DNA of 64,000 nucleotides, from sequence record OQ845958.1. One strand, given 5' to 3'. Under the pieces are notes generated by a model. The model ran no database searches. It saw nothing but the letters and a program-made list of their open reading frames with translations, and had not been told where the DNA came from. The position numbers and the translations under genes were made by a program. The DNA is from Escherichia phage pEC-M719-6WT.2. Shown here one piece after another: positions 2,910-48,335 of the stretch. Positions within the stretch are counted from its first letter, which is position 1; each line of letters begins with the position of its first letter.

Positions 2910-3183
2910 TTTTGATACACAGAAAACTGAATCGCCTTCCGGGGCGATTAGTAAGCAGCAAAACGGGCTTGATATTGAAGCCATGGTTGAGTCAACTGAA
3001 ATGTCTTATCTGGAAGCTGCGACTGCCTGGTTGGAAGAACGTGGAATTCCTGAAGGCAATTTTGCACGATACATTCCTGCGGGAATCATTGATAAGATTA
3101 TGAATGAAGCATATGATGATAACCTGCTTCGCCCAAGTATGTCTCGTACACAGAAAACTAATACGCTGGACTTTTTGTTATGA
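2890..3183 (+). CDS. 33: late-transcription accessory protein gp33 (start taken at internal ATG; ORF-track frame begins 2797)
   Basis: Position between dsbA and 59 as in T4; N-terminal extension in the ORF track overlaps dsbA and is probably not translated. Confidence 0.55.
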   Translation: MMSSLVNFDTQKTESPSGAISKQQNGLDIEAMVESTEMSYLEAATAWLEERGIPEGNFARYIPAGIIDKIMNEAYDDNLLRPSMSRTQKTNTLDFLL

Positions 3184-3848
3184 TTACGATTCGCATGCCT
3201 CCAAATAACAACCGATACATAAATGGTAAATCAGTATATCAACTGTACTTATCCATCAAACAGCATTTTTCGGGTCGTTATGATATTATCAAATATAACT
3301 GGACCATGCGAATCTCCGATAGTGCTTATCAAAAACGTCGCGATAAGTATTTTTTCGAAAAGCTTAGTGATAAGTACACTCTCAAAGAATTAACGTTAAT
3401 ATTCATGTCAAACCTGGTCGCGAACCAGGATGCATGGATAGGTGATATAAGCGATGCTGATGCTCTGATATTTTATCGAGAATACATTGGCAGACTTAAA
3501 AGAATTAAACAAGTATACGAAGATGATATAAAGAATATCTATTACTTCAGTAAGAAAGTCGAAGTCAAATCGCTTCAAGAGATTTTCGAGTATAATACTA
3601 AAGTAAACACAAGTTATATTTTCAAACTTCTCCAATCGAATGTTATCTCATTTGAAACGTTTTGTTTGCTTGATTCATTTTTAGATATTATAAATAAACA
3701 TGATGAGCAGACTAACGACTTGGTTTGGGAAAAGTATTCAACCAAACTAAATGCATATAAGAAAATCTTAAATATAGATTCTCTTGAAGCTCGTAAATTG
3801 TTCATCGAGACCGTTAAAAACTGTCAAATAACGCTTCAAGCACTTTGA
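3180..3848 (+). CDS. 59: helicase loader gp59
   Basis: 222 aa; strong similarity to T4 gp59 from memory (YNWxMRxSDxAYQKRRDKYFFxKLS, LVANQDAWIGDISDADAL). Confidence 0.9.
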   Translation: MITIRMPPNNNRYINGKSVYQLYLSIKQHFSGRYDIIKYNWTMRISDSAYQKRRDKYFFEKLSDKYTLKELTLIFMSNLVANQDAWIGDISDADALIFYREYIGRLKRIKQVYEDDIKNIYYFSKKVEVKSLQEIFEYNTKVNTSYIFKLLQSNVISFETFCLLDSFLDIINKHDEQTNDLVWEKYSTKLNAYKKILNIDSLEARKLFIETVKNCQITLQAL

Positions 3849-28977: not shown

Positions 28978-29007
28978 GTTTACAAGCACAAGGAAGTGCG
29001 ATACAAT
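28978..29007 (+). promoter_or_regulatory. early promoter (GTTTACAA ... TACAAT)
   Basis: ggggtttacaagcacaaggaagtgcgatacaat upstream of ORF 29039. Confidence 0.4.
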
Positions 29008-29038
29008 GTTCATATCAATTGCACATGAGGAAAACAAA

Positions 29039-29329
29039 ATGAAATCATCTTTTCGCTTTAACGGTCAGGAACTGGTAGTTGAGAATGTTATCCCGGCTTC
29101 AGAAGAGTTTGACAGCGCGGTGGGTAATGAATTGCGCCGTGTATTTGGTGAAGATAAGAAGTTTGACCTTCGCCCTGTTGAAAACTTTGTAAATTCTGAA
29201 CAAACAGAAAATATTTTTAATGGTGTAGTAACTGGACAACTTGAATCTGAAGCACCAATTGCAATTACAGTCTTTGCTAAGAAAGAAGCTGTAATGACTG
29301 CAGCAGGTTTCATTTCATTCCGCAAATAA
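29039..29329 (+). CDS. hypothetical protein (internal start of ORF-track 29006-29329)
   Basis: ATG preceded by GAGGAAAACAAA; 96 aa. Confidence 0.45.
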   Translation: MKSSFRFNGQELVVENVIPASEEFDSAVGNELRRVFGEDKKFDLRPVENFVNSEQTENIFNGVVTGQLESEAPIAITVFAKKEAVMTAAGFISFRK

Positions 29330-29357
29330 AAAGGGACCTTCGGGTCCCTTTCTTTTT
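29330..29357. terminator. bidirectional intrinsic terminator between convergent genes
   Basis: aaagggaccttcgggtccctttcttttt; palindromic stem with A/T-rich runs on both sides, between ORF 29039 (+) and gene 54 (-). Confidence 0.65.
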
Positions 29358-33716: not shown

Positions 33717-34797
33717 TGGTAAACATATAGAGGTTTGTAATTGATGTATTGTTACTCACTTCATGAATAACTTCGTCTACGTAAAAATCATATTTGAATT
33801 GGTTCTTCGGGTCATAGAAATTTATCTTATCACCCGGGGTTAATTCAAAGTTCCCGTATGTTTTGCAATGCGCGTAACCATCATATTGAGACATGGTTAT
33901 TAATCGTTGCGCTTCTTCGAAACCGTTTCGGTATGTATAATCCGAATAGCCGCCTGAACGAGATACCAGAATGCTGTTTTGTCCTTCCCCAAAAGTTATT
34001 CTGGTTGCGTTCTTGTCAAGGAATGAATGTGCATACACGGTTGCGTTTTCGTATGGTTTTCTTGTGTGTTGGTTCGCCTTTGTTAACCATTCAAAATCGA
34101 AGGCCAATGGAGTCTCGAGGTTTTGTACAAACTGGCCAACCAATCGAGGTTCACCCACCACGAAATTAATTGGCTCTTGTGATGTTAACCATTCATAATC
34201 CTGGATACTTATTCCATCAATATCTTCCCATACAAAAACAAATTTATCAGTTTCTACTGCCAAACCAACTTCCCTTATGAATTCCATATATCGGTTCATC
34301 GAATCACACCATGGAACGTTAGGAGCATAAACGTTTATGCCGTTTATTGGTGGAGAAAGCAACGGTCTATCCTGATAAATTACCCCGGTCATTTCGACTA
34401 ATGTTTCTTGTACACTCGGGTAAAACATACGACTAAATTTCAGGTCTTCAATTTCGTGAATAGGAGCCAGCTGAATTGTAATTATATTATCGCCTTTTGA
34501 ATCCACAGAAACTGCAAAGTGTTTGCTTCCATATATTCTGGATTGGGTTCGGTCTGAGTTGGCATTCTTAACGGAGACTTGTATAATTTGTTCACCGTTC
34601 ATTTTTGTATGTAAGTTCTTTGTGTCGTAGAATTGCAACAGACCTTCGTTTCTTCCGTAAAGAGAATCACGCATGGTCATAGTTGTAAATGTTGCAGCCA
34701 GTTCTACAAAACGGTGCTCGAGCCAGGCATCATAATCTTCGTAAAGGCGTATACTGATATTAGGAAAGCCTTCACGCTGCATAGATTTAGCTGTCAT
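33628..34797 (-). CDS. 27: baseplate hub subunit gp27
   Basis: 389 aa; [30 protein letters not shown] matches T4 gp27 from memory. Confidence 0.9.
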
Positions 34798-35546
34798 TTC
34801 TTCAAGTCCTTCTCAACTAACGATAAAGCAATACCTCGTTCGATAGGAATCATGTGCATGATGCTATCCAGTGTATATTGATTCTTTACCAGTAAGTGGT
34901 TAATTTGATAAAATACAAAGACTTCATCCGGGTTAAGGATAAGCTTAAAGACATCAATCAAGTCTGTATATTCGGTTTTGTGTTTTTCGCAGCAACCATA
35001 TGTAAATGGAATATAAACCGAATGCATTTTCTTAAGAAGCTCTTCGAGGCTCTCTATATCAATTGCATCGATAACTTGCATCTTTGTTTCTTCGGGAAGG
35101 TCTTCCCAATTGTATTTTTGTTCCGAGTCTTCGACGGTCTGAATGGTATTCAAGACAAGCTCTGACTTATCTTTATATTCCACTTCAGGGAACTTAAATT
35201 GTATTTTTATCCCCGCGGTTTCCATTGTTGGATTTGTCAATGGACCTTGACTCATATTAAACAAAGTCTGCTTTGTCTTTTTACATTTTTGACATTCAAA
35301 CGCTACCGGGACTTTTGTCTTACCGATAGAGGAAGTGAATACCTTCAGGAATATGTAAGGCCTCCATGCTTTTGGATACTCTCCAAAATAATCTTCCAAC
35401 AGTTCGTCTAATAATTGTTTTTGTTCTTCGACGGGTTTGTTGTTCATGTCGTTTCGCACAAGCAGTAAATCACGGTAATCAGCGACTGTAAACGGTTTGA
35501 AACGATGAACTCCGTCTGGCATTTCACATCTTACGATATTGGCCAT
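34794..35546 (-). CDS. 51: baseplate hub assembly catalyst gp51
   Basis: 250 aa (T4 gp51 about 249); Cys-rich; divergent from gene 26 as in T4. Confidence 0.8.
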
Positions 35547-35570
35547 AGAATCCCCTTTTATCTTTATTGA

Positions 35571-35582
35571 TATTTATAAATA
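35571..35582. promoter_or_regulatory. palindromic late promoter TATTTATAAATA serving divergent genes 51 (-) and 26 (+)
   Basis: TATAAATA readable on both strands within a 12-bp palindrome centred between the two start codons. Confidence 0.55.
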
Positions 35583-35599
35583 CAGTAAAGGAGCAAATT

Positions 35600-36223
35600 A
35601 TGACTTATGAATTTATTGTCCAAATTAAAAATAAAACTATAAATTGTAGGGCTTTTACCTTGCGCGAATACAAAGATTTGCTTCAGGCAAAATTAGAAAA
35701 GCGTATGGAACCTGCAATAATTGAACTGCTTAATAAATGCACTGATGCTAAAGGGTTAAACAAACAGGAAGCCGAGCTGCTTCTTATTAATCTCTGGGCA
35801 AATAGTCTCGGAGCTGTTAACGTCGAGCATACATGGGTATGCGAATGCGGAAAGGAACAAGATATTCCTGTGACTATAAGTCGTGCAAGCATCGTGGATG
35901 AGTCTGAAGTTATTCGTGATTTCGGGGCATTTAAAATTAAATTCCGTTATCCTGGGTTGTTTGAAGACGGCGATAAAGGTAAAATGATTGCTTGTTGTAT
36001 CGAATATATTATCACGGAAGGTGGCGAGCGCATCGTTGTTGATGACTTAAATGAAGCCGAAATCGAGGACCTATACAACGCAATTACCCTCGATGATATA
36101 AATGCACTAACCGAAGAACTTCTCAAGCCACAGGTCCAAATGGCTATTCCTATCTCTTGCGAGTGCGGAGCGCATTCTGTCCATGTAATTAAGGGGCTTA
36201 AAGAATTCTTTAAGTTTATGTAA
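35600..36223 (+). CDS. 26: baseplate hub subunit gp26 (internal start of ORF-track 35567-36223)
   Basis: 207 aa from ATG with AAGGAG ribosome-binding site (T4 gp26 about 208); the ORF-track start would lie upstream of the late promoter. Confidence 0.8.
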   Translation: MTYEFIVQIKNKTINCRAFTLREYKDLLQAKLEKRMEPAIIELLNKCTDAKGLNKQEAELLLINLWANSLGAVNVEHTWVCECGKEQDIPVTISRASIVDESEVIRDFGAFKIKFRYPGLFEDGDKGKMIACCIEYIITEGGERIVVDDLNEAEIEDLYNAITLDDINALTEELLKPQVQMAIPISCECGAHSVHVIKGLKEFFKFM

Positions 36224-41980: not shown

Positions 41981-42010
41981 TTAAAAAGGGACCTTCGGGT
42001 CCCTTTATTT
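41981..42010 (+). terminator. intrinsic terminator (GGGACC-UUCG-GGUCCC + U-tract)
   Basis: aaaagggaccttcgggtccctttatttttatgg. Confidence 0.7.
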
Positions 42011-42741: not shown

Positions 42742-43749
42742 ATGTTTAAGAAATACAACAGCCTTGAAAATCACTATAATAACAAGTTCATTGAAAAGAT
42801 TCGCCTGCAAGGCTTCACCAGCGGTGAATGGGTAGCTCGTGAGAAAATTCATGGTACCAACTTTTCATTAATCATTGAACAAGACAATGTGACATGCGCG
42901 AAACGCACTGGACCTATTCTACCTGCAGAAGATTTCTATGGTTATGAAATTGTATTAAAGAACTACGCAGATTCTATTAAATCTGTGCAGAAACTTTTGC
43001 AGGATATTAATTACCAGGCTTACCAGATTTATGGCGAGTTTGCTGGTACAGGTATTCAGAAGAATGTGGATTACGGCGATAAAGATTTCTATGTGTTTGA
43101 TATCCGCGTTACTAAGGAAGATGGCTCTGAATCCGTCCTGACTGACACACTTATGGAAGCCTTTTGTATTATTCATAAGTTTAAAGTTGCCCCACGCCTG
43201 GCCACAGGTAGCTTTGAAGACTTGATTAAGCTCCCTAATGACCTGGATTCTGTGGTCCCTGATTACAATTTTACAGTGGATAACGCAGGATTGACTACAG
43301 CAAATACCACTGATTTTGATGCAAAGGTGGAAGGTAAAGTATTCACTGCTGAAGGATTTGTATTAAAACCTGATGTTCCTGCATGGTTACCTAACGGTGA
43401 GCGCGTAGCGATTAAATGCAAGAACTCTAAATTCAGTGAAAAGAAAAAGTCTGATAAGCCTATTAAAGCTGCAGTTGTGTTGTCACAGGAAGACCTGGAT
43501 GTTTTATGGAAGTTCACTGATTATGTGACTGTTAACCGCATCAATAATGTTATCAGTAAGATTGGGGAAGTATCGCCGAAGGATTTTGGGAAGGTAATGG
43601 GTTTGACTGTCCAGGATATCCTGGAAGAAGCGGGTCGTGAAGGCCTTGAATTAACCCAGACGGAAAATCCTGTTGAAGTTAAAAAGCAACTTATCGCAAA
43701 TGTAAGAGAAACATTAAGACATGTTTGGATTGCATTAATTAGTGAATAA
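42742..43749 (+). CDS. rnlB: RNA ligase 2
   Basis: 335 aa; MFKKYxSLENHYNxKFIEK, [34 protein letters not shown] match T4 Rnl2 from memory. Confidence 0.95.
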
Positions 43750-43780
43750 AAAAGGGCCACAAGGCCCTTATTCTTTTTCC
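43750..43780. terminator. bidirectional intrinsic terminator (GGGCC-ACAA-GGCCC)
   Basis: Palindromic stem flanked by A-run and T-run, between convergent rnlB (+) and the gene 24 paralog (-). Confidence 0.6.
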
Positions 43781-45051
43781 AGCGGTGGAAGTTTAACACC
43801 AAGATAAGAACTCAATTGACTTTGGTTAGCCATCTTATCCATATCAGCTCCATCAATAAGGCGAGCTTCTTTATCATCTTTAGCAACGGTGTAAGGGTTT
43901 GCAGTCAAAGCATAACGAGCTAACAGTGCAACCGTAGGCTGTAAGCTTTCAGGGTCAACAATAACCTTGAATTCCCCAACCGAGGTATCACCCTCATCAT
44001 CAACTTCGCTAAGCCCTTCCGTATAAGGCGCATAATACAAAGATGCGACCGTCTGACCCTCGCCCATATCCGCATTTACACCAACAATAACATAATCGCA
44101 TGGACTATTCATATCTGCATAAAGAGGCAAACCGTTCTTCAGAACACCATAGGCCAATTCATCCTGGTCTTCCTTTTTCTCAACCCAACCAGAAGCGGCT
44201 AAAATAGCTGCACAACGGGAAGAAGCAACCGCATATGTACCAGCAAATGAAGTCTGACGTTGAACTGCAGAATTCATTTCACACATATAATAATACAGGG
44301 TTCGCGCGCGGTCCTGTGCGTTATCATATTTCGGGTCAGTGAGATTCAACACGCCTTTTTCAGAAACACCTTGTACCTTGAAGCGGGAACTAACAGTAAT
44401 AAGGGATTGCAATACATCCTTATTAATTTCCTCCGCCATTTGAATACCGAGAATATTATCGATGAAGTCTGTTGCATCGAAACCGTTTGCTTCCAGGTCC
44501 TGGGCAAGCTCGACAGTTAAAGAAGTTTTCAACTTTCTGGATTTAACTTCAGTCTGCCATTTATCGATACGGAACCCAGCTTCAGCAATTTCAGGATGCC
44601 CCTTTTCAAATTTATCAGTGAAAGCAGCATCTGACATCATTCTTATATGTCCAGCAGCAATGGCTTCAGAAATAACTTCACCTAAATCAGTTTCGAGTGT
44701 CCCGGCGAATGGTGATGCTTCCAGAACTTTGAATACAACGCTTTCAAACTGAAACATATCGCCGACTGCATAAGCTTCGTCTTTGTTTGTAAATTCTGGA
44801 ATATTCTTACGCTCGAACATACCAATCTGACCTGCAAATGTTGCTCCACCGAGATAAGTCATTTTATCATCTGGGTTCAGAACACGAACACCATACAGGG
44901 CTGCAACAGGCTGGGTAGTTTTCTGTTCGGCCACGAGCGCTTTAAAAATTCGTTTATTCGTAGCCTGAGTATAAGAAAGCAAATTAGGACGGGCGACCTG
45001 GTTGGCCGCCGTTAATGTTGATTCGTGAATTAGTGCATTAATCTTTTGCAT
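43768..45051 (-). CDS. gp24-like capsid vertex protein paralog (second copy)
   Basis: 427 aa; roughly half identical by eye to the adjacent gp24 and to T4 gp24 (KSRKLKTxLTVELAQDLEANGF, EINKDVLQSLITVS). Confidence 0.85.
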   Translation of the reverse strand: MQKINALIHESTLTAANQVARPNLLSYTQATNKRIFKALVAEQKTTQPVAALYGVRVLNPDDKMTYLGGATFAGQIGMFERKNIPEFTNKDEAYAVGDMFQFESVVFKVLEASPFAGTLETDLGEVISEAIAAGHIRMMSDAAFTDKFEKGHPEIAEAGFRIDKWQTEVKSRKLKTSLTVELAQDLEANGFDATDFIDNILGIQMAEEINKDVLQSLITVSSRFKVQGVSEKGVLNLTDPKYDNAQDRARTLYYYMCEMNSAVQRQTSFAGTYAVASSRCAAILAASGWVEKKEDQDELAYGVLKNGLPLYADMNSPCDYVIVGVNADMGEGQTVASLYYAPYTEGLSEVDDEGDTSVGEFKVIVDPESLQPTVALLARYALTANPYTVAKDDKEARLIDGADMDKMANQSQLSSYLGVKLPPLEKE

Positions 45052-46332
45052 TTACGCCTCATAAATGATTGGCGGAAGTTTAACACCGAGCAGATAAGAC
45101 ATATTGCTCTGACCGGCCATTAAATCCATATTGGTTGCATCGATAATACGAGCTTCTTTATCGTCTTTAGCAACGGTGTACGGGTTAGCTGAAAGTGCGT
45201 AACGAACCATCAGAGAGATAGATGGCTGCAAGCTGTCTGGGTCCACAATGACCTTAAACGCACCAACGTGCTCTTCATCATCCAAGTCCAGGCCTTCGGT
45301 ATAAGGAGCATAGAAAATTGAGCCTACGACTTCGTTTCCGCCGTAATTTTCTTTAACACCAACAGTTACATAATCCAATGGACTGTTAACATCACAGAAT
45401 ACAGGGAGGCCATTAATCAAATAACCGTACGCTGTTTCGGGGAGCCACTGTTCGTCTTCTGGCCTGTGTTTCAACCAACCAGAACCGGCCAACATAGCAG
45501 CAACACGGCTAGAGGCAACAACAAAGGTACCGGAATAAGATGTAGTTTTCTGAATTTCGGAGTTCATTTCGCAAACCAGTTCGTACAGTTTACGTGCACC
45601 TTCTGGGGCTGCATCGTATGTTAAATCGATGGTGCCATTGTCAGAAACGCCAGTTACTTTATAACGCTTGGAAACGGTAATAAGAGACTGAAGAACATCT
45701 TTGTTAATTTCATCTGCCATAATAGTGGCAAGCAGGTCTTCTAAGAAAGCAGGAGCATTAAAACCATTTGCTTCCATATCCTGGGCAAGTTCAACAGTTA
45801 ATGCAGTTTTCAATTTACGTGTTTTAACCGGAGCATTCCATTTGTTAACCTGGAATACAGCATTGCTAATTTCAACATCACCGGCTTCGAATTTTTCAGT
45901 GTGTGCGGCATCAGGAACAAGGCGAATAGTCGATGCAATAAGACCTTCTTGCAGAACATCAGATAACACTGTTTCTGTGGTCGATGCAAATGGATTATCA
46001 ACCAGAGCTTTGTAAACGATATTTTGGTATTTTACATATTCGCCTTTAGCCACAGGCTGAGTGGCTGTAGTTAATTCTGGAATAGTTGTGCGGTCTTTAG
46101 AACCGACTTCGCCTCCATAAGTAGCGCCCGTCTGGAAACTGAATTCATTATCAGGAGTAAGATATTTAACACCATACAGTGCAGCAACAGGTTGGTTAGT
46201 ACGTTGTTCAGCGATGATATCGCGGTAAATCAATTTAGTCGTAGCGCGGGTCAAAGCAACAAGATTCGGGCGGCCCAAGGAGTTGCTGGTAGTAATAGTT
46301 GACTCGCGCAGTAATTTGTTAATCTTTGCCAT
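45052..46332 (-). CDS. 24: capsid vertex protein gp24
   Basis: 426 aa; N-terminus MAKINxLLRESTxTxSNSxGRPNLVALTRATTKLIY and much of the body match T4 gp24 from memory. Confidence 0.92.
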   Translation of the reverse strand: MAKINKLLRESTITTSNSLGRPNLVALTRATTKLIYRDIIAEQRTNQPVAALYGVKYLTPDNEFSFQTGATYGGEVGSKDRTTIPELTTATQPVAKGEYVKYQNIVYKALVDNPFASTTETVLSDVLQEGLIASTIRLVPDAAHTEKFEAGDVEISNAVFQVNKWNAPVKTRKLKTALTVELAQDMEANGFNAPAFLEDLLATIMADEINKDVLQSLITVSKRYKVTGVSDNGTIDLTYDAAPEGARKLYELVCEMNSEIQKTTSYSGTFVVASSRVAAMLAGSGWLKHRPEDEQWLPETAYGYLINGLPVFCDVNSPLDYVTVGVKENYGGNEVVGSIFYAPYTEGLDLDDEEHVGAFKVIVDPDSLQPSISLMVRYALSANPYTVAKDDKEARIIDATNMDLMAGQSNMSYLLGVKLPPIIYEA

Positions 46333-46358
46333 TTGCGCTTTCCTTTTGTGATATACTT

Positions 46359-46366
46359 TATTTATA
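46359..46366 (-). promoter_or_regulatory. late promoter (TATAAATA on minus strand) for gene 24
   Basis: Forward TATTTATA about 25 nt upstream of the gp24 ATG; back-to-back with a plus-strand early promoter. Confidence 0.55.
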
Positions 46367-46372
46367 AAAGTT

Positions 46373-46420
46373 GTTTACAACCAGATTAAGATAAGACATA
46401 ATGATTCCATACTGAGTTAA
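46373..46420 (+). promoter_or_regulatory. early promoter cassette (GTTTACAA in short hairpin ... CATAAT)
   Basis: gttGTTTACAAc ... cataatgattccatactgagtta; leader nearly identical to the cassette at 22154. Confidence 0.5.
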
Positions 46421-46443
46421 CAAACAAAACCTGGAGTTTAAAA

Positions 46444-46725
46444 ATGAACAAAGCAACTTTCCTTCTGAACACCTTTAAAAAATTGGAAATTGAAGTTATT
46501 GCATTGGTCAACAAATACCCAAATGGTGTTAATGGTAATGCTCTGAACAAACTAGTTAAAAAATATGAAAACTTAGCATATGACACTGATTTCTGGTGGA
46601 ATGGTAATTATTCTACTCACACTAAAGATAAAAATGGTAACTGGTTGAAACTTCAAGAAAACAATGTTAACTTCAGAGACCTCATCAAGCGCCGGGTAGA
46701 AGTTCATTTAAATGGTATGGTATGA
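46444..46725 (+). CDS. hypothetical early protein inserted between late genes 24 and 23
   Basis: 93-aa ORF on the opposite strand to flanking capsid genes, with its own promoter and terminator. Confidence 0.55.
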   Translation: MNKATFLLNTFKKLEIEVIALVNKYPNGVNGNALNKLVKKYENLAYDTDFWWNGNYSTHTKDKNGNWLKLQENNVNFRDLIKRRVEVHLNGMV

Positions 46726-46730
46726 AAACA

Positions 46731-46766
46731 AGAAAGGGACCTCAAGGGTCCCTTTTTATTTAACTT
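46731..46766. terminator. bidirectional intrinsic terminator (GGGACC-UCAA-GGGUCCC)
   Basis: aagaaagggacctcaagggtccctttttattt; serves ORF 46444 (+) and gene 23 (-). Confidence 0.65.
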
Positions 46767-46775
46767 AATCTAGGA

Positions 46776-48335
46776 TTAAATTCCTTTAACATATACGCGG
46801 CGGAAGTAACCGTTCAAGCCGAGGCTGTTAACGATGTCCGGCATGCCATTCTGGATGCGCTTGGCCGGAGCCTGAGCTACCGGGTCAGCGAACGGGTTAA
46901 TACCGATACCGTAACGGGTTTTGAAGCCCATAACCGGCTGGAAGTTTTTCGGGTCAGAGCCACGCAGCGGGGTCAGTGCAACATATGGTGCGTAGTAGAT
47001 ACCAGCATCCATTTCGTTAGCGCCTTTGTAACCGATGGTGAAATAGTCTGCACGAGCATACTGGTCGATGTATACACGGTATTTGCCACCCAGAACACCA
47101 GCGAACACAGCTTTAGTGGTGTCAACGTTGAAACCTTTACCCAGACCCTGAGCAGCATAAGATACGGAGGTATCAACTGCAGCCAGTACGTTAACTACGT
47201 TACGGGAAGCGATGATGAAGTTACCTGCACCACGGCCAGTCTGACGAGCGATTTCAGCGGCTTCTTTATCAATCTGGAACAGTAAAGCTTTGAAGCTTTC
47301 ACCAGCCCAACGAGCGCCACGGATATCAATCGGGTCCTGGAAGTCAAACACACCAGCTTTAGCGCCAACGGTGTTGGTCATACCAGATTTACCAACCTGT
47401 GCGGAGTAGTTAATCCAATCGATAACTTCGCGGTTGATTTCCAGCATAATTTCGGTAGCCAGAATACCACTCAATTCGGCATCAGCATCCATACCATGAA
47501 CAGCGCGCAGGTCCTGTGCCAGTTCGATGGAGTAACTTGCTTTCAGCTGGCGGGATTTAGCTTCGATAACTTGTTTATCGATACGGAAGCCCATTTCGTT
47601 CCACGGGTTATCAGTAGAACCGTTGAAGCCTTCCTGCAATTCGGCGATAGAGGTAGCCATACCTTCAGCGATTTCGGCCAGCTTACCAGCTTCGAGCAGT
47701 TTGGTAACTTCGGCGTCAAGTTTAGCGGCATCAGTAGCAGCAGCATCAACGGTTACAGCTTCAACAGCCTGGAAGTGCGCGGCACCGGTTGCTTCGAAGA
47801 AGTGAGAATAAATTTTACCAACGGTAAGAACTTTGCTTGCAGCCAGAGCTTCGAAAGCCTCAGCAGCGCCCTGACCAGAGAACATAGCATTTGGAGCATA
47901 CATCGGGTGGAAAGCTTCTTTAGCACCTGCAGCTACAGGGTCTTTACCGTAAACTGCACGCAGGGCAAATACCTGGCCAGTCGGGTTGTTCAGAGGCTGT
48001 ACGCCACAAATATCAAACGCAATCAGATGCGGGATAGCACGACGAACCATGCCCATAACTGCCGGCCCAATCTGAGTTACTGCACCAGAGGTCTGGCCAG
48101 CAGCGATATTGGTAGCATCATAACCATGGTCACCACCGATTTCAGCTTCGGTCAGGAAAGAACCAAATGCTTCGGAGATTTTTTCGTCACGGTATTCAGG
48201 AGCGGTCAGAATATCTTGTTCCTGGTTTTCAAAGATTTTAGCGATGATAGCTTGTTTGGAAGCACCAACGATTTCCGGAAGAGCTTCGTTTTCCAGCAGA
48301 GCGGACCATTTTTGAACTAATGCATTCTTTTTCAT
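46776..48335 (-). CDS. 23: major capsid protein gp23
   Basis: 519 aa; long stretches match T4 gp23 from memory (e.g. SFLTEAEIGGDHGY, NPWNEMGFRIDKQVIEAKSRQLKA, C-terminal FRRVYVKGI). Confidence 0.98.
   Translation of the reverse strand: MKKNALVQKWSALLENEALPEIVGASKQAIIAKIFENQEQDILTAPEYRDEKISEAFGSFLTEAEIGGDHGYDATNIAAGQTSGAVTQIGPAVMGMVRRAIPHLIAFDICGVQPLNNPTGQVFALRAVYGKDPVAAGAKEAFHPMYAPNAMFSGQGAAEAFEALAASKVLTVGKIYSHFFEATGAAHFQAVEAVTVDAAATDAAKLDAEVTKLLEAGKLAEIAEGMATSIAELQEGFNGSTDNPWNEMGFRIDKQVIEAKSRQLKASYSIELAQDLRAVHGMDADAELSGILATEIMLEINREVIDWINYSAQVGKSGMTNTVGAKAGVFDFQDPIDIRGARWAGESFKALLFQIDKEAAEIARQTGRGAGNFIIASRNVVNVLAAVDTSVSYAAQGLGKGFNVDTTKAVFAGVLGGKYRVYIDQYARADYFTIGYKGANEMDAGIYYAPYVALTPLRGSDPKNFQPVMGFKTRYGIGINPFADPVAQAPAKRIQNGMPDIVNSLGLNGYFRRVYVKGI

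Follow-up and report, generated by a model that had tools for sequence, protein, structure and literature searches.

The window analysed here, a stretch of 64,000 nucleotides from Escherichia phage pEC-M719-6WT.2 (sequence record OQ845958.1), carries the capsid genes 24 and 23 on its minus strand, and the intergenic segment between them, in the following denoted the 23/24 slot, harbors a small open reading frame on the plus strand. According to the list of open reading frames and the annotation of phage VR7, the left flank of the slot is formed by gene 24(1) for the capsid vertex protein (45052..46332, minus strand), adjoined by its paralog gene 24(2) (43768-45051, minus strand), and the right flank by gene 23 for the major capsid protein (46776..48335, minus strand), beyond which genes 22, 21 and 68 are arranged in order. 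The two gp24 paralogs in tandem (43768-46332) are 56% identical to each other; the pair is annotated as 24(1)/24(2) or 24a/24b in VR7 and JS98, and a single copy is present in Mosigvirus and T4. A literature search on the gp24 duplication and orf173 of JS98 returned no match. To the left of gene 24(2), rnlB (42742-43749, plus strand) is assigned from the local gene order.

Over the 700 bases around the slot, identity amounts to 99% with several phages of Escherichia and Yersinia and to 91-94% with VR7, VR20, VR25, VR26 and SP18. VR7, TH15 and TH57 are assigned in their records to Gaprivervirus, a T4-type phage genus, and in 31 of the 33 Gaprivervirus records the larger part of the query stretch surrounding the slot is present.

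The plus-strand reading frame, ORF93 (46444..46725), encodes 93 amino acids, and its assignment as a gene is based on the open reading frame list, a profile match (phrog_6003) and homologs. A frame of this length between genes 24 and 23 had been noticed in an earlier reading made without database searches (the sequence-only reading), and it is indeed present. A Shine-Dalgarno motif GGAG (46433..46436, plus strand), recognized in the sequence 7 nt 5' of the ATG, is kept in the ORF-bearing alleles. Two minus-strand reading frames in the slot (46386-46586 and 46573-46707) overlap ORF93, which is the frame with demonstrated conservation.

Predicted promoter elements and terminator hairpin of the slot

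The late promoter box TATAAATA of gene 24(1) (46366..46359, minus strand; assigned by sequence and motif scan) is located 26 nt upstream of the gene 24(1) ATG at 46332. On the plus strand, consensus and strict-pattern scans identify a -35 element GTTTACA (46373..46379) of a T4-early-type sigma-70 promoter, and the consensus scan a -10 element CATAAT (46397..46402) positioned 17 nt past the hexamer TTTACA (46374-46379). TTTACA-17-CATAAT matches the consensus at 10 of 12 positions, and the G at 46373 extends the -35 element to the T4-early form GTTTACA. Compared with the T4-early promoter definition (-35 GTTTAC(A/T), spacer 17 +/- 1, -10 TAnnAT), the site agrees except for the first base of the -10 hexamer, which is C and not T. 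Transcription is predicted to start near 46409. As TATAAATA occupies 46366..46359 and GTTTACA begins at 46373, the early and the late promoter are placed back-to-back and 6 bp apart. The sequence-only reading had described just this pairing of a plus-strand sigma70-like promoter with the gene 24 late promoter, and GTTTACA-17-CATAAT is present as a predicted element. The conserved AT-rich block TATTTATAAAAGTT (46359-46372, plus strand) spans about -51 to -38 of the early promoter; it sits at the position of an UP element and might act as one.

In another part of the window two TATAAATA boxes overlap on opposite strands (35571-35582; plus at 35575, minus at 35571) between the divergent ORFs 34794-35546 (minus) and 35567-36223 (plus), where they may constitute a compact divergent late promoter pair.

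The late box TATAAATA is invariant in every occupied allele of the slot as well as in the empty Tequatrovirus G2133, the sole exception being the empty slot of TH57, which reads AATAAATA. In TH57 a deletion joint (3155-3175 of the excerpt) has turned the gene 24 late box TATAAATA into AATAAATA, and expression of TH57 gene 24 may be more dependent on read-through from gene 23. The block TATTTATAAA(A/G)(G/A)TTGTTTACA is invariant across Gaprivervirus, Dhakavirus and Mosigvirus, and so is the -35 element GTTTACA, which reads ATTTACA upstream of T4 segD. A -10 hexamer is found at the same 17-nt spacing in four genera, where it reads TACTAT in Dhakavirus and Mosigvirus, TATAAT in TH15 and TATTAT in T4. 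The spacer sequence has diverged among the genera, while the -35 element and the spacing are kept. The promoter block is missing from empty slots and specific to occupied alleles.

A generic sigma-70 scan of 1.3 kb yields 2 sites against 2.2 expected, i.e. not above chance. It could be argued from this that the putative promoter is a chance match in the AT-rich gene 24 leader and that ORF93 is read only by transcription running through from rnlB, 24.2 and 24.3. The literature on segD, the homing endonuclease gene of T4, offers some support for such a view. Edgell, Gibb and Belfort (2010; PMC2988022) point out in their review that segD is the only T4 endonuclease gene oriented against its neighbours, that a segD-specific promoter was not found, that distant upstream promoters have been suggested and that transcript levels are probably vanishingly low. 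In the supplements of a time-resolved omics study of T4 (PMC9697503), segD is classified as 'early RNA, middle protein' with the protein detected, and rnlB, 24.2 and 24.3 fall into the same 'early RNA' class. However, the -35 element and a -10 hexamer at the proper distance are retained in four genera despite the divergence of the spacer and are absent from empty slots, which argues against a chance match. Furthermore, the strict T4-early pattern GTTTAC[AT]-N16-18-YANHAT, scanned over the 64-kb window, gives 6 matches against 0.65 expected. All six are located on the plus strand, which is the early direction in this window, and each ends at most about 45 nt from a plus-strand start codon, the match at 28978 reaching one. 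Read-through would also have to traverse the 2.6 kb of the antisense gene 24 pair. A slot devoid of a promoter of its own is therefore regarded as very unlikely. Early or middle transcripts of the rnlB cluster, which lies upstream on the strand of ORF93, could nevertheless pass antisense through both gene 24 copies and add to its expression.

Upstream of segD in T4 (NC_000866, 107246-107295), the positionally homologous ATTTACA-17-TATTAT abuts the gene 24 late box, with predicted elements on the minus strand at 107281..107276 (-35) and 107258..107253 (-10) and a predicted start near 107246. Since T4 segD lies behind a positionally homologous promoter and is represented by early RNA, indirect support is obtained for activity of the slot promoter. 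The rnlB cluster, which is also early and lies upstream on the segD strand, possibly contributes by read-through.

Just 3' of the ORF93 stop codon a hairpin AGAAAGGGACCT-CAA-GGGTCCCTTTTT with T-runs on both strands is found (46731..46762), which is inferred from folding, covariation and its presence in empty slots. The hairpin proper (46731-46757) comprises 12 pairs, and its free energy is -17.0 kcal/mol on the plus strand (z -4.1) and -15.9 kcal/mol on the minus strand (z -3.1), the z-scores being relative to shuffled sequence. Compensatory changes are seen in 5 of 8 stem pairs across 7 alleles, with the covarying stems GGGACC/GGTCCC, GGGACTC/GAGTCCC, GGGAGAC/GTCTCCC and GGGAACC/GGTTCCC. With a stable GC-rich hairpin and a U-run on each strand, the element has the features of a bidirectional intrinsic terminator and is predicted to act as one, in agreement with the sequence-only reading. 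A clean plus-strand T-run is restricted to the Gaprivervirus ORF allele; the T-rich tail on the minus strand is general.

The same reading had counted the terminator as part of a self-contained cassette, and in this respect it has to be corrected. The hairpin occurs in all states of the slot, and in the empty alleles of TH57 and Tequatrovirus G2133 it is likewise found 3' of gene 23. It is thus best described as the resident terminator of gene 23 itself, which ORF93 uses from the other side. As plus-strand transcription would stop here, early transcription is not expected to proceed antisense into gene 23.

The hairpin motif AAGGGACC-loop-GGTCCCTT occurs 3 times in the window against 0 expected, its copies outside the slot being located at 29331 and 41986. 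An Rfam scan of the slot gave sub-threshold matches to sraA and SraG over the hairpin only, which were taken as chance. A second unit of equal design is observed at 28978-29350 of the window, where a GTTTACA promoter at 28978 with a GCAC...GTGC inverted repeat in its spacer precedes a small plus-strand ORF (phrog_1739, function unknown; ending at 29329) just past an alt-like gene. A hairpin AAGGGACCTTCGGGTCCCTT (29331-29350) is located 3' of this ORF, where a minus-strand tail gene converges, and the same hairpin is present 3' of hoc (41986-42005).

The ORF93 protein family

The equivalents of ORF93 are VR7ORF190c and JS98 orf173, and RB69ORF188c-189c are related to it. Residues 1-90 of ORF93 align with positions 1-90 of the 90 positions of the phrog_6003 profile (E 8.9e-47), and tblastn yields ORF93 matches in 237 phage records. 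Homologs in the identical slot share 61% (JS98) and 36% (Shf125875) of their amino acids with ORF93 over the whole alignment, and 62% and 37%, respectively, by tblastn. The dN/dS ratio is 0.19 between the window and VR7, and 0.13 both between JS98 and LF82-33 and between JS98 and IME341. ORF93 is basic with a pI of 9.56, and the family maintains a pI of 9.5-9.6 and a net charge of +4 to +5.5 among members that are only about 31-36% identical. The dN/dS values together with the conserved basic charge point to selection on the protein itself. Conservation of the frame, on which the sequence-only reading had made its proposal depend, is evident from the profile match, the number of records and the substitution ratios.

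The AlphaFold model depicts ORF93 as a small domain predicted with confidence (pLDDT 82), consisting of helices 3-24, 31-48 and 77-91 and a beta hairpin 58-70. Fold and sequence searches with ORF93 retrieved no relative of known function, a Pfam scan gave no match and in particular no GIY-YIG domain, and the family is annotated as hypothetical in every source. The family is narrow, with 8 clusters in an exhaustive profile search of 1.84 billion representative proteins; two of the eight were discarded as spurious or chimeric, one being a low-complexity repeat protein (P0012) and the other a chimera (P0008). Most likely, ORF93 would be an early-acting binder of a host or phage macromolecule with a role in host take-over or counter-defence. 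Its partner is more likely to be an acidic protein or a nucleic acid, as the net charge of the family is kept at +4 to +5.5.

With a GC content of 33%, ORF93 differs from the window (41%) and from its flanks (43-50%). It also evolves far faster than its neighbours, as dN between the window and JS98 amounts to 0.30 for ORF93, 0.07 for gp24 and 0.02 for gp23. All three nevertheless diverge in the same order, with Gaprivervirus closer to Dhakavirus than to Mosigvirus, which argues for mostly vertical descent of ORF93 from a common ancestor. A recent horizontal insertion into the present genome is rejected on account of the flanks, which exhibit only ordinary within-genus divergence, and of the 31 of 33 congeners that hold most of the stretch. 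Taken together, these sequence comparisons indicate that ORF93 is an old and mostly vertically inherited resident of the slot in Gaprivervirus, Dhakavirus and Mosigvirus.

A homolog with 33% identity is encoded amid small same-strand ORFs in a phage of the Vequintavirinae, so that the gene is found outside the capsid slot as well. In Acinetobacter phage ABPH49, from an unrelated subfamily, the distant homolog (33% identity, 50% GC) lies in a run of small same-strand ORFs, where it is flanked by two hairpins with CGAAAG loops (3430-3445 and 3773-3790 of the excerpt). In RB69 (NC_004928, 6292-6532 of the excerpt), the annotated genes RB69ORF188c and RB69ORF189c are pieces of one ORF93-family gene. 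Compared with Shf125875 (97% nucleotide identity), the split is due to one inserted and one deleted base together with a small cluster of mutations, and the RB69 copy is either a pseudogene or the result of old sequencing errors. Unless the latter applies, the interruption by two frameshifts implies that loss of the gene is not lethal to the phage.

Occupancy states of the slot and exchange between its joints

Comparison of the 23-24 intergenic region over T4-like phages, which the sequence-only reading had suggested, was performed by a distant-mode search with the slot and both flanks as query. Four states are observed: empty, ORF, ORF plus segD, and segD alone. Empty slots are present in about 17 of the sampled genomes, mostly Tequatrovirus, with about 83 bp between genes 24 and 23 (e.g. 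G2133), and also in Gaprivervirus TH57. The ORF alone is found in the window, VR7, JS98, Shf125875 and WFL6982, and the ORF followed by segD in IME341 (Dhakavirus) and the LF82 series (Mosigvirus). An endonuclease gene alone is carried by T4 (segD), PhiZZ6 and Gaprivervirus TH15. The slot is thus the one that holds segD in T4, as had been proposed, and there too the gene lies on the strand opposite to the capsid genes. Homing by SegD was reportedly the subject of a study by Sokolov et al. in 2018.

The endonuclease of TH15 is 72% and that of IME341 56% identical to T4 SegD. With respect to the Pfam model SegE_GIY-YIG, the TH15 gene scores above the cut-off, and the genes of IME341 and LF82-33 score below it. 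In IME341 and LF82-33 the segD ATG starts at the fourth base past the ORF stop, i.e. with 3 nt between. No obvious Shine-Dalgarno motif precedes the segD start in the ORF plus segD alleles (1248-1260 and 906-916 of excerpts L007 and L008, respectively). The close spacing suggests that segD translation may be coupled to that of the ORF93-type ORF in these alleles.

The left joint is seen in TH15, whose identity to the window extends through GTTGTTTACA and is lost within the promoter spacer. The architecture upstream of T4 segD is alike, with the reverse complement of TATAAATA, AAGTTATTTACA, 17 nt and TATTAT. As the late box and the -35 element are common to all occupied alleles including T4 segD, it is the cargo between the joints that is exchanged and not an entire promoter-ORF-terminator unit. 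The sequence-only reading had viewed the arrangement as a mobile module of the latter type. Its exchangeable content is borne out by the SegD-type gene of TH15, the empty slot of TH57 and the block in LF82-33, but the self-contained unit is not, the hairpin belonging to gene 23 and the late box and -35 element being fixed in all occupied alleles.

Between JS98 and IME341 the ORF differs only in its last ~12 nt, after which IME341 contains a 685-bp segD insertion; past segD, a cluster of mismatches extends from the hairpin into the last ~20 nt of the gene 23 3' end. In LF82-33 the flanks match Mosigvirus WFL6982 at mostly 96-100% identity, whereas the ORF and the larger part of segD match Dhakavirus IME341 at mostly 90-100%, with the joints at the ORF start and at the terminator. 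The LF82-33 ORF protein shares 93% identity with that of JS98 and 32% with the usual Mosigvirus allele. Judged from this Dhakavirus-type block between Mosigvirus flanks, ORF and segD have evidently moved as one block between genera. In the final codons of gene 23, a synonymous patch of T4 type is common to TH15 and TH57, whose flanks farther out display ordinary within-genus divergence. The patterns in JS98/IME341, LF82-33 and TH15/TH57 are, as read from the alignments, signatures of break-repair co-conversion around a homing endonuclease gene.

The same exchanges might instead have arisen independently of SegD, by simple homologous recombination between repeated copies of the promoter and stem-loop motifs, possibly via mini-circles. 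The breakpoints of TH15 inside the promoter spacer and at the hairpin would be accounted for, and copies of both motifs are available in the window, i.e. three of the hairpin against none expected and six of the GTTTAC promoters. Exchanges of this kind have been described for the promoter-early stem-loop (PeSL) cassettes (PMC2839356, PMC4122927). However, each replacement found here involves a SegD-type gene (TH15, IME341, LF82-33), and the short conversion patches at the 3' ends of gene 23 and the ORF are typical of double-strand-break repair. Furthermore, no composite promoter-plus-stem-loop motif exists at either end of the cassette, and no inverted repeat is found in 46333-46443. Recombination at the motifs alone is hence considered rather unlikely.

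A different reading would regard ORF93 as a selfish passenger, useless to the phage and kept as flanking cargo, or as an expression platform, of SegD through co-conversion. It is suggested by the immediate proximity of segD to the ORF stop in IME341 and LF82-33, with no obvious Shine-Dalgarno motif of its own, by the joint transfer of both genes between genera, and by the loss of the ORF in T4, TH15 and TH57 and its frameshifts in RB69. Yet most carriers possess the ORF in the absence of segD, as exemplified by the 31 of 33 Gaprivervirus records that hold most of the stretch and by the ORF-only alleles of JS98, Shf125875 and WFL6982. Neither the dN/dS of 0.13-0.19 with its conserved basic charge nor the homolog in a different context in the unrelated Vequintavirinae phage would be expected of a mere passenger, which makes this reading quite improbable.

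A predicted early accessory unit in a late operon and its relation to known systems

In our preferred interpretation, to which we assign a probability of roughly 70%, the ORF93 unit is a small monocistronic early transcription unit placed antisense in the late capsid operon of Gaprivervirus, and ORF93 is an accessory gene in an exchange slot with two joints. Host sigma-70 RNA polymerase would start at GTTTACA-N17-CATAAT soon after infection, as judged from the anatomy of the site, and the AT-rich DNA upstream of this promoter would double, on the other strand, as the late promoter TATAAATA of gene 24. The predicted mRNA of ~350 nt would encode the 93-residue basic helical protein and would be halted at the hairpin that also ends gene 23 transcription from the opposite side. 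Some close relatives lack ORF93 or carry another gene in its place, which marks it as a non-essential accessory gene. Purifying selection nevertheless maintains it, and its residence in the slot predates the split of Gaprivervirus, Dhakavirus and Mosigvirus. Cargo would swap between two conserved joints, on the left side the block of late box and -35 element and on the right side the terminator of gene 23. SegD genes would have been inserted just past the ORF stop (ORF plus segD), would have taken the place of the ORF downstream of the shared promoter (T4, TH15), or would have been lost together with the ORF (empty).

The homology in position and architecture suggests that T4 segD may have inherited its promoter from an ORF93-type cassette. 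A wider proposal goes further and is put forward tentatively, at somewhat less than even odds. The ORF93-type cassette would have occupied the 23/24 slot ancestrally and served as a landing pad for the invading SegD, T4 segD would be the remnant after loss of the ORF, still driven by the cassette promoter, and ORF93 would be an early effector of orphan fold in host take-over or counter-defence. [quoted passage not shown]

The 23/24 intergenic slot of the Tevenvirinae thereby emerges as a four-state polymorphic site with fixed joints. It provides clean natural cases of SegD-associated cargo exchange, between genera too, and a testable account of the orientation and early expression of T4 segD. 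With phrog_6003 it also offers a small conserved basic family devoid of fold relatives, which could reasonably be entered into screens for host take-over or anti-defence functions. The finding is a modest one, as it reveals neither a new kind of genetic element nor a new mechanism; it adds a so far unnamed member, ORF93.

Several known systems resemble the slot in part. Morons, as defined by Hendrix and co-workers, are autonomous promoter-gene-terminator units between genes that are adjacent in related phages. In accordance with a moron, one additional gene, preceded by a predicted sigma-70 promoter and followed by a terminator, is situated between two late genes, the flanking genes are adjacent in relatives (TH57, G2133 and the ~17 mostly Tequatrovirus genomes), and the GC content of ORF93 (33%) is below that of the flanks (43-50%). 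Contrary to a moron, the phage is virulent and expression is predicted early in lytic infection and not from a prophage. Moreover, the ORF93 terminator is borrowed from gene 23, and ORF93 is old in the slot and no recent addition. As to a promoter and a terminator of its own, the promoter is restricted to occupied alleles, and the hairpin, shared with gene 23, is also present in empty ones.

For the PeSL cassettes of T4-type phages, modular exchanges are described by Arbiol et al. (2010, PMC2839356) and Comeau et al. (2014, PMC4122927), as is their occurrence within conserved virion modules beside unknown genes. In common with them, a T4/PST-type early promoter (TTTACW-N17-TAYWAT) and a stem-loop in the style of A3-4G3-loop-C3T3-4 border an unknown ORF, breakpoints of indels and replacements among close relatives fall within these motifs (TH15, TH57, LF82-33), and both motifs recur in the window (hairpin 3 vs 0 expected; GTTTAC promoters 6 vs 0.65). 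In contrast to PeSLs, the promoter and the stem-loop are ~330 bp apart at opposite ends of ORF93, the -10 hexamer of the slot starts with C, and a homing endonuclease gene takes part in every replacement observed here. Since promoter and stem-loop do not form one composite motif, the slot departs from the strict definition of a PeSL.

With T4 segD and intronless homing (PMC2988022), the locus has the slot, the strand and the late-box/-35 block in common, and SegD-type genes either accompany the ORF or substitute for it, flanked by short conversion tracts. Unlike in T4, there is no endonuclease gene in the window, and ORF93 lacks a GIY-YIG domain. Direct family membership connects ORF93 with phrog_6003, VR7ORF190c, JS98 orf173 and RB69ORF188c-189c, all of them hypothetical proteins. 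Residing in the variable segD slot, ORF93 is to be viewed as an ordinary phage accessory-gene cassette and not as an element of a new type. Among known systems, moron-like or PeSL-like early cassettes and intronless homing come closest.
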